Positions 3,582 through 64,000 of a stretch of DNA of 64,000 nt are shown here, one piece after another (within the stretch, counting starts at the first letter, position 1; each line of letters starts with the position of its first letter). The notes beneath the pieces are model-generated. The model made no database searches. It was given only the letters and a program-made list of their open reading frames with translations, and was not told the DNA's origin. Both the position numbers and the translations under genes were made by a program. Source of the DNA: Okamejei kenojei (taxonomy: Eukaryota). The stretch spans positions 10,230,001-10,294,000 of the forward strand of contig CM069143.1 in assembly GCA_035221665.1 (NCBI GenBank). The letters are read 5' to 3'.

Positions 3582-4275
3582 ATAGACATAGACATAAAAA
3601 CATAGAAAATAGGTGCAGGAGTAGGCCATTCGGCCCTTCGAGCCTGCACCGCCATTCAATATGATCATGGCTGATCATCCAACTCAGTATCCCGTACCTG
3701 CCTTCTCTCCATACCCCCTGATCCCTTTAGCCACAAGGGCCACATCTAACTCCCTCTTAAATATAGGCAATGAACTGGCCTCAACTACCTTCTGTGGCAA
3801 TGAATTCCAGAGATTCACCACTCTCTGTGTGAAATTTTTTTTTCTCATCTCGTTCCGAAAAGATTTCCCCCTTATCCTTATTCTGTGACCCCTTGTTCTG
3901 GACTTCCCCAACATCGGGAACAATCTTCCTGCATCTAGCCTGTCCAACCCCTTAAGAATTTTGTAACTTTCTATAAGATCCCCCCTCAATCTTCTAAATT
4001 CTAGCGAGTACAAGCCGAGTCTTTCCAGTCTTTCTTCATATGAAAGTCCTGACATTCCAGGAATCAGTCTGGTGAACCTTCTCTGTACTCCCTCTATGGC
4101 AAGAATATCTTTCCTCAGATTAGGAGACCAAAACTATACGCAATACTCCAGGTGTGGTCTCACCAAGACCCTGTACAACTGCAGTAGAACCTCCCTGCTT
4201 TTGTACTCAAATACTTTTGTGATGAAGGTCAACATACCATTCGCTTTCTTCACTGCCTGCTGCACCTGCATGCCT
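3582..4275 (-). mobile_element. Young 5'-truncated CR1 LINE, (CTATGTTT)n-tail subfamily
   Basis: ORFs 3684..4055 and 4134..4382 give the CR1 ORF2 C-terminus (LYRVLVRPHLEYCVQ; LSYEERLERLGLYSLEFRRLRGDLIE; RTRGH); tail seen as catagaaa repeats; nearly identical to 61733-62758. Confidence 0.92.
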
Positions 4276-4307
4276 ACTTTCAATGACTGGTGTACTGCCT
4301 TAACTCC

Positions 4308-4465
4308 AATAGACAATAGACAATAGGTGTAGGAGTAGGCCATTCGACCCTTCGAGCCAGCACCGCCATTCAATGTGATCATGGCTGATCATCCCCAATC
4401 AGTACCCCGTTCCTGCCTTCTCCCCATATCTCCTGACTCTGTTGTTTTTAGGAGCCCCATCTAGC
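4308..4465 (-). mobile_element. CR1 3' end, (CTATTGT)n-tail subfamily
   Basis: caatagacaatagacaatagg tail followed by the conserved CR1 3' hairpin region; same subfamily as 10340-10915 and 34913-35428. Confidence 0.85.
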
Positions 4466-4756
4466 TCTTTGGCAGCTCATTCCATATACCCACCAACCTC
4501 TGTATGAAAAGGTTGCCCTCAGTTTCCTATTAAATCTTTCCCCTCTCAGCTGAATCCTATGTCCCTGGTTCTTGATTCCCCCTACTCTGAGTAAAAGGCT
4601 GTGCATTGACCCTATCCATTCCCCTCATAATTATATGCACCTATATAAGGTCACCCTTCAGCCTCATGCAATCCACAGAATAAAGCCGTAGGCTACCCAT
4701 CCTCTCCCCATTGCTCAGGCCCTCAAATCCCTGCAACATCCTCATAAATCTTCTAC

Positions 4757-10339: not shown

Positions 10340-10915
10340 AGCACTGCAGTTGTACAGGGCCCTAGTGAGACCACACCTGGAGTATTGTGTGCAGTTTTGG
10401 TCCCCTAATTTGAGGAAGGACATTCTTGCTATTGAAGGAGTGCAACGTAGGTTTACAAGGTTAATTCCCGGGATGACGGGACTGTCATATGCTGAGAGAA
10501 TGGAGCAGCTGGGCTTGTACACTCTGGAGTTTAGAAGGATGAGAGGCAATCTCATTGAAACATATAAGATTGTTAAGGGCTTGGACACACTAGAGGCAAG
10601 AAACATGTTCCCGATGTTGCGGGAGTCCAGAACCAGGGGCCACAGTTTAAGAATAAGGAGTAAGCCATTTAGAACAGAGATTCTCACTTTTTCTCATAGA
10701 GATTGGTGAGTCTGTGGAATTCTCTGCCTCAGTGGAGGCGGGTTCTCTGGATGCTTTCAAGAGAGAGCTAGATAGGGCTCTTAAAAATAGCGGAGTCAGG
10801 GGATATGGGGAGAAGGCAGGTACTGATTGTGGATGATCAGCCATGATCACATTGAATGGCGGTGCTGGCTCGAAGGGCCAAATGGCCTACTCCTGCACCT
10901 ATTGTCTATTGTCTA
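10340..10915 (+). mobile_element. 5'-truncated CR1 LINE, (CTATTGT)n-tail subfamily
   Basis: ORF 10314..10709 gives LQLYRALVRPHLEYCVQFWSP...RTRGH; ends with cctattgtctattgtctat. Confidence 0.92.
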
Positions 10916-11911
10916 TAACTAAAATGCATTCAGCATTTTTACAGGGAAATTGACAAATACCATCAGATTATATTATTCTGAATTTGCAAACAAGACAAAA
11001 CCAGAATGAAATGTAATATCAGGATCTAAATATTTAACTTACTAATGGACAAATAGGATATCCCACAACCACAGGGATAGTGCTTGGAGCTGGAATTTAT
11101 ACCAAATAAAAACAATTAGAAATTTCATGTCTTTGTTTTTGAGGGAGGTGACCAGCTAAATAGTACATCATATGGAAAGGATGATAATAAATAATTAAAT
11201 CCTAACCAATTGCACATGCATATAACTAACTAGCCAGTCTTCCCAAGCACAAAGCCAAACTAACACCTTCATCTACATGCTTGGAGGTGGTGTCAGATTC
11301 AGATTTGCTTCCTGCTTTGCCAAGCTTTTCTTTATTCTTGGTCGAAACAAAATTGCATTTATTTTTGGAAATGGAAATGATTACGTTATATGAACTGAAT
11401 GGTTTTAATTAAGCTAAGAGGGGTCCTAAAATGTATAACATGCATTTTCATTTGGGGAGAATTGGAAGCAACTGTGGAATTACTTAAATTAAGTAATATG
11501 GTATGGATTCCGTACTCCAGAATTTGTCCCAATAACTGTGATTCAATGCATAAATTGTTTATAAGGGATCAATGAAAAAGCTTGATGCTGCATTTCAGCA
11601 TCATAAATTTCAAATTCAAAGAACTAAATTTGCCAGATCATCTAAACATTAACAGATGACCTTAATCCATATTATTGGCTGATTTGAACATCTTTCCTGG
11701 ACGATAGGATCATTCCTGTCTAATTTATAGCTGTAGGTTTTGGATGTATTCAGGCTGAAGAGATCAAGTGGTTCCTAGATGTCTTAAATTTTTCATTTAT
11801 GATGGTCCACAAATTTGCATATTTTTCATTCTGGCTGTTACTGGTCAGTTCTCAGTCAGGCAGGCTCTCAAACAAAATATTATGCAACATGAATCTATGT
11901 TGGAAAACTGC

Positions 11912-34912: not shown

Positions 34913-35428
34913 TATTCTTGCTATTGTGCGAGTGCAGCGTAGTTTCACAAGGTTAATTCCCGGGATGGCGGGACTGTCATATGCTGAGAGAATGGAGCAG
35001 CTGGGCTTGTACACTCTGGAGTTTAGAAGGATGAGAGGGAATCTTATTGAAACATATAAGATTATTAAGGGTTTGGACACACTAGAGGCAGGAAACATGT
35101 TCCCGATGTTGGGGGAGTCCAGAACCAGGGGCCACAGTTTAAGAATAAGGAGTAAGCCATTTAGAACGGAGACTAGGAAACACTTTTTCTCACAGAGAGT
35201 GGTGAGTCTGTGGAATTCTCTGCCGCAGAGGGCGATGGAGGCAGGTTTTCTGGATGCTTTCAAGAGAGAGCTAGATAGGGCTCTTAAAAATAGTGGAGTC
35301 CGGGGATATGGGGAAAAGGCAGGAACGGGGTACTGATTGGGGATGATTAGCCAAGATCACATTGAATGGTGGTGCTGGCTCGAAGGGCCGAATGGCCTAC
35401 TCCTGCACCTATTGTCTATTGTCGATTG
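34913..35428 (+). mobile_element. 5'-truncated CR1 LINE, (CTATTGT)n-tail subfamily
   Basis: ORF 34893..35336 gives the CR1 ORF2 C-terminus to its stop; tail cctattgtctattgtcgattg. Confidence 0.92.
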
Positions 35429-36023
35429 CATGAGACACTGCCTCAAGAGGACAGCATTTATCATTAAGTATCCCGAGCATCTGGGCTGTATCCTCTTTTA
35501 AGTGCTACGATGTGGCAGGTGGTGCAGAAACTTGGGCTCTTACCACCAGGTTCGGGCATAGTTACTTTCCTACAACTATCAGGTTCTTGATTATTTAAGT
35601 TTTTGTGTGTTGCCTGAATATATGTTGCAGTGATGCTGCTGCAAGCAAAATACTTTTTGTACCTGTACCTCCCCATACCTGTGCCAATGATTGTAAGCGC
35701 AACTTAGCTCAACTTAAAACAACACCGTCAATAATTTTGGATCAGCTTGAGGGAAATTGCTCCTTATATAAAAATATCATGTATCGGTTTAACACTTGTA
35801 GGATACTTCTTGGAAGCATGCAGTAGACTTGTGTTTATATTCCTCATGCCAAGCACCTAAGAAAGTGTGGATTTTTTTTTTCCACATCAGTCATTTTGAA
35901 AGAAAAATTCTTGGAATGCACATACTGCCTATTATATTAATGGAATTCCATAAATTCAGTTACAGGGAAGGTGGGCCGAGTTCTGATTGAAATTTATTTA
36001 ATGTACAATTATATCACAGACAT

Positions 36024-36423
36024 TGGCGGTCACTCGAAACGTGTATGACTGTCCTCTCATGGAGGACGCCTGTGCGTGACTTTGTTTAACATGGGGAGAC
36101 TGGTGCACAGACAGCCACCGCATGGTCCTTGACAGATCTGGGTCAGGATCCAGTGGCATGGAGTCCAAGATGGCCGGGGACCCTTTTCTGCTGCAGCCTC
36201 CATGCGCCTTCCCAGCCGTTATGACGCTCCACTAAAGTCAGCCATTGTCCTCCTCTTGATCCACCGTTGAGGCCTTGGTTGGATTGCTCTTTGTCAGAGA
36301 CCTCCCACTCGACCTTACCGCCATGGATGACCCTACTAGGAGCATACCTCCAGACGGCTTCGCTCTCAGGATCTCAGGACCACACAAGCTTCTCCACCAC
36401 GACAAGGTGACAATCCACGGAGA
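36024..36423 (-). mobile_element. 400-bp non-autonomous RTE-type retroelement (5' UTR joined to 3' end) with 11-bp TSD
   Basis: ATCACAGACAT at 36013-36023 and 36424-36434. The reverse-strand 5' part (cacCTTGTCGTGGtggagaagcttg...agggtcatccatggcggtaaggtc...tgacaaag) resembles recalled Rex3/BovB 5' ends, and the 3' end (...tcgagtgaccgccaatg) resembles RTE termini. No RT ORF. Confidence 0.78.
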
Positions 36424-37030
36424 ATCACAGACATAATAACCCCTGTTCAATGTGATAACATCTTCACCTATTCAGTCAGCTCATCAGCCAGAAACAAGGG
36501 GCGAATCACATTTTTTGTACACAATACAACTGGAAAGGTGGTCAGTCTGTATATTTTTTAGATAATTGTAACATTGCATTCAGGACTTTGCAACCATCCC
36601 CTCATTCGCAATCTCATACACACTCAGCGATTGAAAAATTGTTGAAAAATTGATAAACAAGATGTATAAAGGTGATGTCAACCTATTGACTGGTTCTCTA
36701 TCTCATTGTATAAGCACTATAAAAATACTGGAATCACTCAGCAGGTCAGGCCATCACTTCATGAAGAGAGAAACAGAGCCATCACTTCATGTCCGAGATC
36801 CTTTGTTACAACTGAATTGTTGGCAGTGTTTCTCTTTCCACAGGGGCTGCCTGACTGGTTGAGTATTTCCAGTCTGTTCTTTATATTTTTTTGAGATTTC
36901 CAGTATCTGTAGCTTATTTTATTTATTTATTACCGCCATCATTCAACATGGATTGTGCAGGCTGTATTTGACTGTTATGTATTCTAAATGTGATATCTTT
37001 CACTAATTGCCCGTTTTGTGTACCGTGCAG

Positions 37031-61732: not shown

Positions 61733-62758
61733 CATGTGGGGTACCGCAAGGCTCAGTGCTGGGACCACAGCTATTTACAATATATATTAATGATCTGGAT
61801 GAGGGAATTGAATGCAACATCTCCAAGTTTGCAGATGACACGAAGCTGGGGGGCAGTGTTAGCTGTGAGGAGGATGCTAGGAGGCTGCAAGGTGACTTGG
61901 ATAGGTTAGGTGAGTGGGCAAATGCATGGCAGATGCAGTATAATGTGGATAAATGTGAGGTTATCCACTTTGGTGGCAAAAACAGGAAAGTAGACTATTA
62001 TCTGAATGGTGGCCGATTAGGAAAAGGGGAGATGCAACGAGACCTGGGTGTCATGATACACCAGTCATTGAAAGTAGGCATGCAGGTGCAGCAGGCAGTG
62101 AAGAAAGCAAATGGTATGTTGGCATTCATAGCAAAAGGATTTGAGTACAATAGCAGGGAGGTTCTACTGCAGTTGTACAGGGTCTTGGTGAGGCCATACC
62201 TGGAGTATTGCGTACAGTTTTGGTCTCCTAATCTGAGGAAAGACATTCTTGCCATAGAGGGAGTACAGGGAAGGTTCACCAGACTGATTCCTGGGATGGC
62301 AGGTCTTGCATATGATGAAAGACTGGATAGACTCGGCTTGTACTCGCTGGAATTTAGAAGATTGAGGGGGGATCTAATAGAGACTTACAAAATTCTTAAG
62401 GGGTTGGACAGGCTAGATGCAGGAAGATTGTTCCCGATGTTGGGGAAGTCCAGAAGAAGGGGTCACAGTTTAAGGATAAGAGGGAAGTCTTTTAGGACCG
62501 AGATGAGAAAATCATTTTTCACACAGAGTGGTGAATCTGTGGAATTCTCTGCCACAGAATGTCGTTGAGGCCAGTTCATTGGCTATATTTAAGAGTTAGA
62601 TGTGGCCCTTGTGGCTAAAGGGATCAGGGGGTTGGAGAGAAGGCAGGTACAGGATACTGAGTTGGAGGATCAGCCATGATCATATTGAATGGCAGTGCAG
62701 GCTCGAAGGGCTGAATGGCCTACTCCTGCACCTATTTTCTATGTTTCTATGTTTCTAT
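61733..62758 (+). mobile_element. Young 5'-truncated CR1 LINE with about 270 uninterrupted ORF2 codons
   Basis: ORF 61699..62568 gives GVPQGSVLGPQLFTIYINDLDEG..KFADDTKLGG..; (ctatgttt)n tail. Confidence 0.95.
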
Positions 62759-62771
62759 ATTTCCTCACAAC

Positions 62772-63100
62772 ATCATGTTCCCGATGTTGGGGGAGTCCAT
62801 AACCAGGGGCCACAGTTTAAGAATAAGGAGTAAGCCATTTAGAATGGAGACAGGGAAACACATTTTCTCACAGAGAGTGGTGAGTCTGTGGAATTCTCTG
62901 CTTCAGAGGGTGGTGGAGGCAGGTTCTCTGGATGCTTTCAAGAGAGAGCTAGGTAGGGCTCTTAAAAATAGCGGAGTCAGAGGATATGGGGAGAAGGCAG
63001 GAATGGGGTATTGATTGGAGATGATCAGCCATGATCACATTGAATGGCGGTGCTGGCTTGAAGGGCCAAATGGCCTACTCCTGCACCTATTGTCTATTGT
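62772..63100 (+). mobile_element. CR1 3' end, (CTATTGT)n-tail subfamily
   Basis: catgttcccgatgttgggggagtcc...cctattgtctattgtc, immediately after the previous CR1. Confidence 0.9.
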
Positions 63101-64000
63101 CATTGAGGGATTCCATTTTTGGTCCATCAGAATCCCATTCCAAAGTAATTTTCCCTGTATTATTTATTCATCATGCTTCCACCAACTCCCCTCCAGATTC
63201 TTCCACTCACCTAGATATTTGTTGGTGCCCACTTAACGGACCAACCTGCCTTGCTTTGGGATGTCGGAAACAACTGGAGCATCCAGTAGAAACTCACATG
63301 GTGTGTAAACTCTACACAGGCAGCACAGAGTTTGGAATTGTTCCCATCTAGCACCCGTTGAGTTGCCTATCTCCTTCGCTCCATAGATGCTGCTGCACCC
63401 GCTGAGTTTCTCCAGCACTTTGTGTAGGCCATTGTGTCATCCTTTATCTAAAAATGTGGAAGTGGATCCAGAGATAGGAAGGTTGTAAAATGTCTCTTTT
63501 AAAAATATTGTTTTCAACTGAGTTTCACTGGAATATTGTCAGAGGTCAGTGTAAGGGTGGGCCACATAATTAAATTAGCAAGGGAAGAGTTTAGGGTCAT
63601 TCTGGTGTGCAGGGCAGAAATATTCAGAAAAATTATGCCTCATCAGTACTTGGGTTCTCAAGCATTTAGGAGACTGTGCTATGAGTAGCAAATGTAGTAT
63701 TTTCAATGTGAATAGGTAGGTACAAGTAAATCTGTAAAGAGCATTTGGTCCATGTACAATGGGGAATGGAGATGCTAGGGATGTTGAAAAGCTGGTGCGG
63801 AGGGTTTCGTGGAAAGAGAATCGGCCCCTGAGTGTGACACCACAGAAGGAATAGATCCTTTAGAGTTCTGAAGGAGATGGGGAAGATGCATTCAGTCATA
63901 GAATTGTGCTGGGAATGTGAGGAAACTATCCATTAGAGGCAGGTGGGGGTTATAGATGAGGAAAAAGAGGTAAAGGTAAAAATGCAGGACATGGCATACA

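Follow-up and report, generated by a model that had tools for sequence, protein, structure and literature searches.

In the canonical HDV and CPEB3 ribozymes, P1.1 is formed by a C in L3 that pairs to a G in J1/4, and in a variant of the fold from fungi part of P4 is replaced by an E-loop with strands AGUA and GAA. The fungal HDV variant paper, PMC5640933, we take to be Li and Breaker 2017. In the excerpted text of that paper (PMC5640933), the fungal variants have a C-G pair at the cleavage site and an additional nucleotide, usually C, that separates P2 from P3, and cleave in vitro. A review of HDV ribozymes lists G1 as invariant (PMC8495972, excerpt), and a ribozyme that has C1 and a P1.1 of a single pair was reported in 2026 to cleave at 9.3 per min (PMC13635239, excerpt); within that excerpt the cellular examples of C1-type ribozymes are given no function. 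HDV-like ribozymes are also known from the 5′ ends of non-LTR elements, RTE among them (Ruminski et al. 2011; PMC6765202, PMC5786205 and PMC3774820, excerpts), R2 SIDEs, along with R2/R1 hybrid SIDEs, bear ribozymes (Eickbush 2012; PMC3414825, excerpt), and bipartite non-autonomous RTEs include Bov-A, RTESINE and WALLSI3 (PMC5786205). Each of three components has been published before: RTE 5′-end ribozymes, C-G-type HDV variants (fungi and a nematode) and ribozyme-headed elements with internal deletions.

Here we describe a 400-bp element of Okamejei kenojei, lying on the minus strand of a 64,000-nucleotide stretch of contig CM069143.1 (the window) in which the first 365 bp of an RTE-type LINE are joined to its last 35 bp. 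It belongs to a family of internally deleted, non-coding copies of that LINE, whose predicted HDV-like head very probably serves to cut before C1 and free the element RNA. The predicted ribozyme belongs to a known class rather than a new one, and the combination is apparently unreported: a literature search found no report of the flipped-core motif in RTE elements, although it may be among the sequences of Ruminski 2011 and Weinberg 2015, of the fungal alignment or of PMC13635239.

A short element built from the two ends of an RTE-type LINE

The element and its flanks comprise the following parts.

36059..36423, minus strand: part derived from the LINE 5′ UTR (element nt 1-365), of which nt 6-365 match L081:604-967 at 88.5%
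36024..36058, minus strand: element nt 366-400, which come from the LINE 3′ end and match L081:4437-4471 (its last 35 bp) at 97%
36424..36434, unstranded: 5′ target-site duplication, whose last base overlaps P1 position 2
36013..36023, unstranded: 3′ target-site duplication, whose first bases, ATG, overlap the GAT tail

The locus had been proposed to be an RTE-derived mini-element with target-site duplications, and this is borne out: both ends match one LINE, L081, and the 11-bp direct repeat ATGTCTGTGAT lies on both sides (36424-36434 and 36013-36023), with the T at 36424 common to the duplication and the element. L081, a broken LINE of 3.9 kb, has endonuclease (EN) and reverse-transcriptase (RT) frames; it carries the core motif described below and ends in a (GAT)n tail, and (GAT)n is also the tail of the 400-bp family. 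Its protein relatives are single EN+RT products of ~1,050 aa, the closest named ones, from teleost fish, sharing 73–77% identity. Identity reaches 77–79% with proteins from teleost fish and other assemblies, and horizontal transfer is possible. Several of the homologues bear the name craniofacial development protein 2, a label that we take to be typical of RTE endonucleases. LINEs of the RTE clade have a single EN+RT reading frame, a length of about 3–4 kb and a short tandem-repeat tail. L081 agrees in EN+RT, length and tandem-repeat tail, and the parent LINE is classed from its sequence as RTE-type, a label that rests on the EN+RT architecture and these general criteria, not on a tree. Like short internally deleted or bipartite LINEs, the element joins the 5′ and 3′ ends of one LINE, lacks an ORF and exists as copies flanked by target-site duplications.

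A search of its own genome (2.76 Gb) with the element returned 2,445 candidates, and the 40 that were scored included 39 other near-full-length copies at 92–94% identity. The core motif pattern has 1,265 exact matches in the genome and its reversed control none, and target-site duplications were detected in 26 of 54 copies of the family (family 1) as opposed to 0 of 54 for shifted controls. The 29 best-matching copies differ from one another by 3.1% on average (mean pairwise), and the window copy differs from them by 7.1%. The joining of a ribozyme-bearing 5′ end to the LINE 3′ end, with a hybrid tail also represented, resembles R2 SIDEs (PMC3414825) and bipartite RTEs (PMC5786205). Unlike R2 SIDEs (PMC3414825), the present elements are dispersed, number over a thousand heads and have an APE-type RTE parent instead of the rDNA-specific R2.

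Other repeats were observed alongside this family. Longer internally deleted derivatives of the same head, about 0.9 kb in length, and a third tail type also occur (L038/L039, L051, L055). Many copies of hybrid mini-elements (type B, e.g. L040 and L507) carry the same ribozyme-bearing head on a 3′ end that comes from another LINE family, the third and more distant one, with about 40% amino acid identity in the endonuclease, much as R2/R1 SIDEs are hybrids; the tail source is represented by L134, L135, L137 and L138, and the tail has 240 exact matches. A descriptor scan upstream of this third LINE family found no fold of its own, only a short element inserted in L138. The window also contains other dispersed repeat families (3592-4468, 10343-10916, 34913-35428, 62057-63105 and others), in which the ribozyme core pattern was not found.

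Predicted fold of the element head

The 5′ 146 nt of the element fit an HDV-like nested double pseudoknot (P1-P2-P3-P1.1-P4), with the following parts.

36419..36425, minus strand: P1 5′ strand, CUUCUCC in the family and AUUCUCC in the window copy; predicted cleavage directly 5′ of 36425
36418, minus strand: J1/2, 1 nt between the P1 and P2 5′ strands
36410..36417, minus strand: P2 5′ strand, UGGAUUGU
36409, minus strand: extra C between P2 and P3, as in the fungal C-G-type variant (PMC5640933)
36396..36408, minus strand: P3 (ACC/GGU) with the 7-nt L3 UUGUCGU; U20 is 36405, U21 36404, G22 36403 and G25 36400
36389..36395, minus strand: P1 3′ strand, GGAGAAG; G37 is 36389
36387..36388, minus strand: J1/4, C-U, the 3′ side of P1.1 (a G22-C38 pair plus U·U)
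36294..36386, minus strand: P4 domain, 93 nt, alignable across RTE-type elements
36288..36293, minus strand: J4/2, CAAAGA, with the putative catalytic C at 36293
36280..36287, minus strand: P2 3′ strand, GCAAUCCA

All segments of the original prediction are present on the minus strand, with P2, P3/L3, the P1 3′ strand and J4/2 as written, and its suggestion of a variant fold is borne out. Several details change. The proposed P1 pairing UCUCC/GGAGA stands, but the helix has 7 bp (CUUCUCC/GGAGAAG) and begins 2 nt upstream of the start that had been assigned to it. P1.1, thought to be missing, is present in reversed polarity: the purine at L3 position 3 (G, 36403) is paired to C 36388, with which J1/4 begins, beside a U·U, and this pair covaries to A-U. 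An insert of about 95 nt had been noted between P1 and J4/2; it is there, and its 93 nt make up a conserved P4 with several stems. L3 does read UUGUCGU, as stated when it was described as deviant, but it keeps U20 and G25 of the named U20:G25 pair, and in J4/2 the C is followed by an A three bases on (position names from PMC13635239).

The J4/2 cytosine column is invariant in all 12 aligned heads, and within the family the base is C in 75 of 77 alignable copies, with 14 of 91 copies unmatched by the regular expression. RNAalifold on 12 RTE-type heads recovered P2, P3 and the multi-stem P4, 24 of 34 pairs having changed on both sides. Because the search patterns fixed P3 and most of L3, the invariance of these parts is not independent evidence; P3 never varies.

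The core resembles the fungal variant (PMC5640933) in its C-G cleavage-site pair, the extra C between P2 and P3 and the HDV architecture, the window copy itself having A1, and differs from it in its 93-nt P4 and in its place at retrotransposon 5′ ends in animals. A further difference from the fungal variant is that a strict E-loop (AGUA + GAA) at the base of P4 is found in 0 of 12 examples tested, a degenerate loop being possible. With the ribozymes in the excerpt of PMC13635239 it shares C1, C18:G28, U20:G25, a catalytic C with an A three bases on, and a P1.1 in which one Watson-Crick pair is accompanied by a pyrimidine mismatch; that pair is written there as U:A, with A23 in C. briggsae, whereas here it is G-C or A-U, L3 supplying the purine, and U stands at position 23. 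Canonical HDV and CPEB3 ribozymes differ from it on both counts, having a purine-pyrimidine G1 pair in place of C1-G37 and no purine on the L3 side of P1.1.

Rfam gave no ribozyme match for the window or for the motif of 15 related loci, a null result that is uninformative because the canonical CPEB3-like L301 was likewise missed. Among 493 polyA reads from another organism there was no pile-up of ends; 98 reads cross the 5′ boundary, mostly from one locus that has two substitutions in the P1 3′ strand and is probably read in antisense, and the three contig sets may be DNA.

Covariation and the position of the element start

Covariation, the place of the 5′ ends in four independent repeat families and the parent LINE all support the HDV-like ribozyme fold that the original prediction put at the element 5′ end. 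A P1/P2 filter was passed by 17 of 25 representatives chosen by hand and failed by 8. In all 17 the first pair is C-G (C1-G37, with G37 fixed by the pattern), and P1 pairs 2–7 each occur as 3–5 pair types; changes in P1 and P2 are compensated. The two P1 strands form 6.8 of 7 pairs within a family, a value inflated by selection, vs 3.6 across families. P1.1 is G-C in 17 and A-U in 4 of 21 aligned rows, a score reached by 1 of 500 shuffles, with related rows inflating the contrast.

Two further families in the same genome permit comparison. A second RTE family (family 2), about 50% identical to the first in amino acids, has 44 exact core matches, a P1 of CCUCUUC/GAAGAGG, a compensated 9-bp P2 and a J4/2 of CUAA. 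An unrelated short element of ~140 bp, with 2,135 exact core matches, has a canonical CPEB3-like minimal HDV fold with G1·U, L3 UUCACGU, a 5-nt P4 and an (AAG)n tail (L138:5250-5351 on the minus strand, L289-L308), and its P1.1 shows the canonical polarity (C in L3, G in J1/4).

Conservation starts at P1 position 1. In family 1 the base there is C in 13 of 30 copies selected by pattern and in 12 of 16 that are linked to the LINE; it is C in 25 of 30 copies of family 2 and in 58 of the 61 listed copies with flank of a metagenome family, and G in 15 of 20 copies of the canonical-type family. At −1 the commonest letter accounts for 13 of 30 pattern-selected and 9 of 16 LINE-linked copies of family 1, 11 of 30 copies of family 2, 23 of the 61 listed metagenome copies and 7 of 20 canonical-type copies. 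The left ends of the target-site duplications of family 1 range from −3 to +7 around C1, with the mode at 0 and 11 of 26 at −1 or 0. The family begins at the first base of P1 and not inside the helix as had been thought; the window copy alone is shortened, by 1 nt. A longer P1 of 8 bp that would draw on a host G at −1 was considered and ruled out, as G is not enriched there (4 of 30 and 1 of 16). In 16 LINE copies conservation of the core exceeds that of the remaining UTR only slightly (non-CpG 0.043 vs 0.053), which is expected for dead LINE copies.

The same core in metagenomes and phages

A metagenome scan listed at least 116 core matches, of which 3 were too short, 21 lacked P1 and 92 had P1; one family contributed 68 of the 116. 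The pattern left L3 position 3 free as A, C or G and admitted only C or T at J1/4 position 1, so that C-G lay outside the search. Among the 92 listed P1-positive matches, P1.1 is G-C in 70, A-U in 18 and something else in 4, G/U and A/C having been allowed, and C1 is present in 86. An RTE-like endonuclease lies downstream at three or more of the metagenome loci.

Viral contigs contain the same core with a short P4 or none. Of 40 distinct sites 16 were structure-positive, 13 of them from one phage family, and when G31 was excluded from the pattern, 2 of 19 were strict positives and a further 4 came near, all with a compensating A7-U31. Judged from its recurrence with compensatory changes, and from the control pattern excluding G37, which yielded 0 of 40 structure-positive sites, the HDV-like fold lies far beyond chance. 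The extra C between P2 and P3 is present in family 1 and absent from family 2 and several of the phage examples. The loci L114-L117 and L156 were set aside as chance motif matches.

The phage copies sit in places typical of ribozymes. In L482:283-339 a minimal C1-type core follows a phage tRNA-Ile, starting 2 nt beyond its CCA end, a context like that of theta ribozymes, which likewise adjoin tRNA CCA ends (PMC10879173, excerpt), with the L482 core inverted. The L150 copy has two twister ribozymes as same-strand neighbours, at distances of about 0.7 and 1.6 kb. A large phage family (L139 and relatives) was also observed to have the C1-G37 core with a P4 of ~35 nt, following a U-rich stretch.

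Proposed mechanism and alternative explanations

In the mechanism that we propose, the first 146 bases would fold into an HDV-like ribozyme, and the J4/2 cytosine, acting as general acid with Mg2+, would cut before C1, as in the established HDV chemistry (PMC13635239). The cut would release the element RNA from read-through host transcripts. As in the ribozymes of RTE and other non-LTR elements (PMC6765202, PMC5786205, PMC3774820), the fold occupies the exact 5′ end and release of the element is the proposed outcome. The LINE protein would recognise and copy the released RNA in trans by target-primed reverse transcription, because this RNA would carry the LINE 3′ end and a (GAT)n tail, and new copies would begin at C1 between short duplications.

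An unlikely alternative is that the pseudoknot is real and serves only as a structural 5′ module, in protein binding, exonuclease protection or translation initiation, with the 5′ end set by transcription start from an internal promoter. The large, conserved P4 domain does suggest a second role, and IRES-like and protein-binding roles have been described for R2 HDV folds (PMC6765202); cleavage is nevertheless the reading favoured by the invariant C at the catalytic position in the 12 aligned heads, by unrelated P1 sequences that all set the element boundary at P1 position 1, and by the same core adjoining a phage tRNA end.

We regard it as still less probable, indeed as a slim chance, that the family-1 fold is decayed or trapped, P3/L3 being paired to a P4 segment, and that the family spread without cleavage, its starts inherited from the end of the parent LINE. 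Such a trap is what the minimum-energy folds of the window copy and L004 depict, since they sequester P3/L3, and C1 is lacking from 17 of 30 pattern-selected copies of family 1. Pseudoknot-free folding of family-1 heads likewise favours other structures, with a P3 pair probability of 0.003–0.01 as compared with 0.70 in family 2, and the pseudoknot is estimated to be better by only about 4 kcal/mol in a crude sum that omits loop penalties. The folding program, however, cannot form pseudoknots, the young copies keep the core, and new copies would need some means of defining their 5′ end. That L3 (UUGUC) instead pairs with the GACAA around the putative catalytic C, as part of a different structured RNA class, is almost certainly wrong: the perfect 5-bp complementarity seen in family 1 is complete in only 2 of 17 representatives, one of which depends on a misplaced J4/2, and A-type L3 (UUAUC) faces GACAA or UACUA without compensation.

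The window copy has A in place of C1 (36425), giving A1·G37, and shows 24 departures from the other copies within 400 bp, 7 of them in P4; comparison with the 29 best copies found none in P2, P3, L3, the P1 3′ strand, J1/4 or J4/2. With A1·G37 and the P4 substitutions, this copy is, on balance, likely to be weak or dead as a ribozyme.

A wider reading, to which we give an even chance, is that the head represents a distinct HDV subtype in which C1-G37 and purine22-pyrimidine38 are inverted together, and that this is the standard 5′ module of a broad animal RTE lineage, with a conserved 93-nt P4, shared with phages, swapped as a head onto the tails of other LINEs and so far overlooked in large animal genomes that contain thousands of copies. 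The coupled inversion of the two pairs can be compared with the canonical G1-type family from this genome and makes a structural rule directly testable, and a 5′ ribozyme could matter where RTE UTRs are used in gene-writing templates (PMC13708176, excerpt). C-G-type HDV ribozymes, described in fungi and a nematode, would also occur in high-copy animal retrotransposons and in phages, and would gain a biological role of the kind that the excerpt of PMC13635239 describes as lacking for cellular examples. A ribozyme at the head would also account for the precise 5′ ends in this RTE lineage and for the readiness with which it spawns two-part mini-elements.
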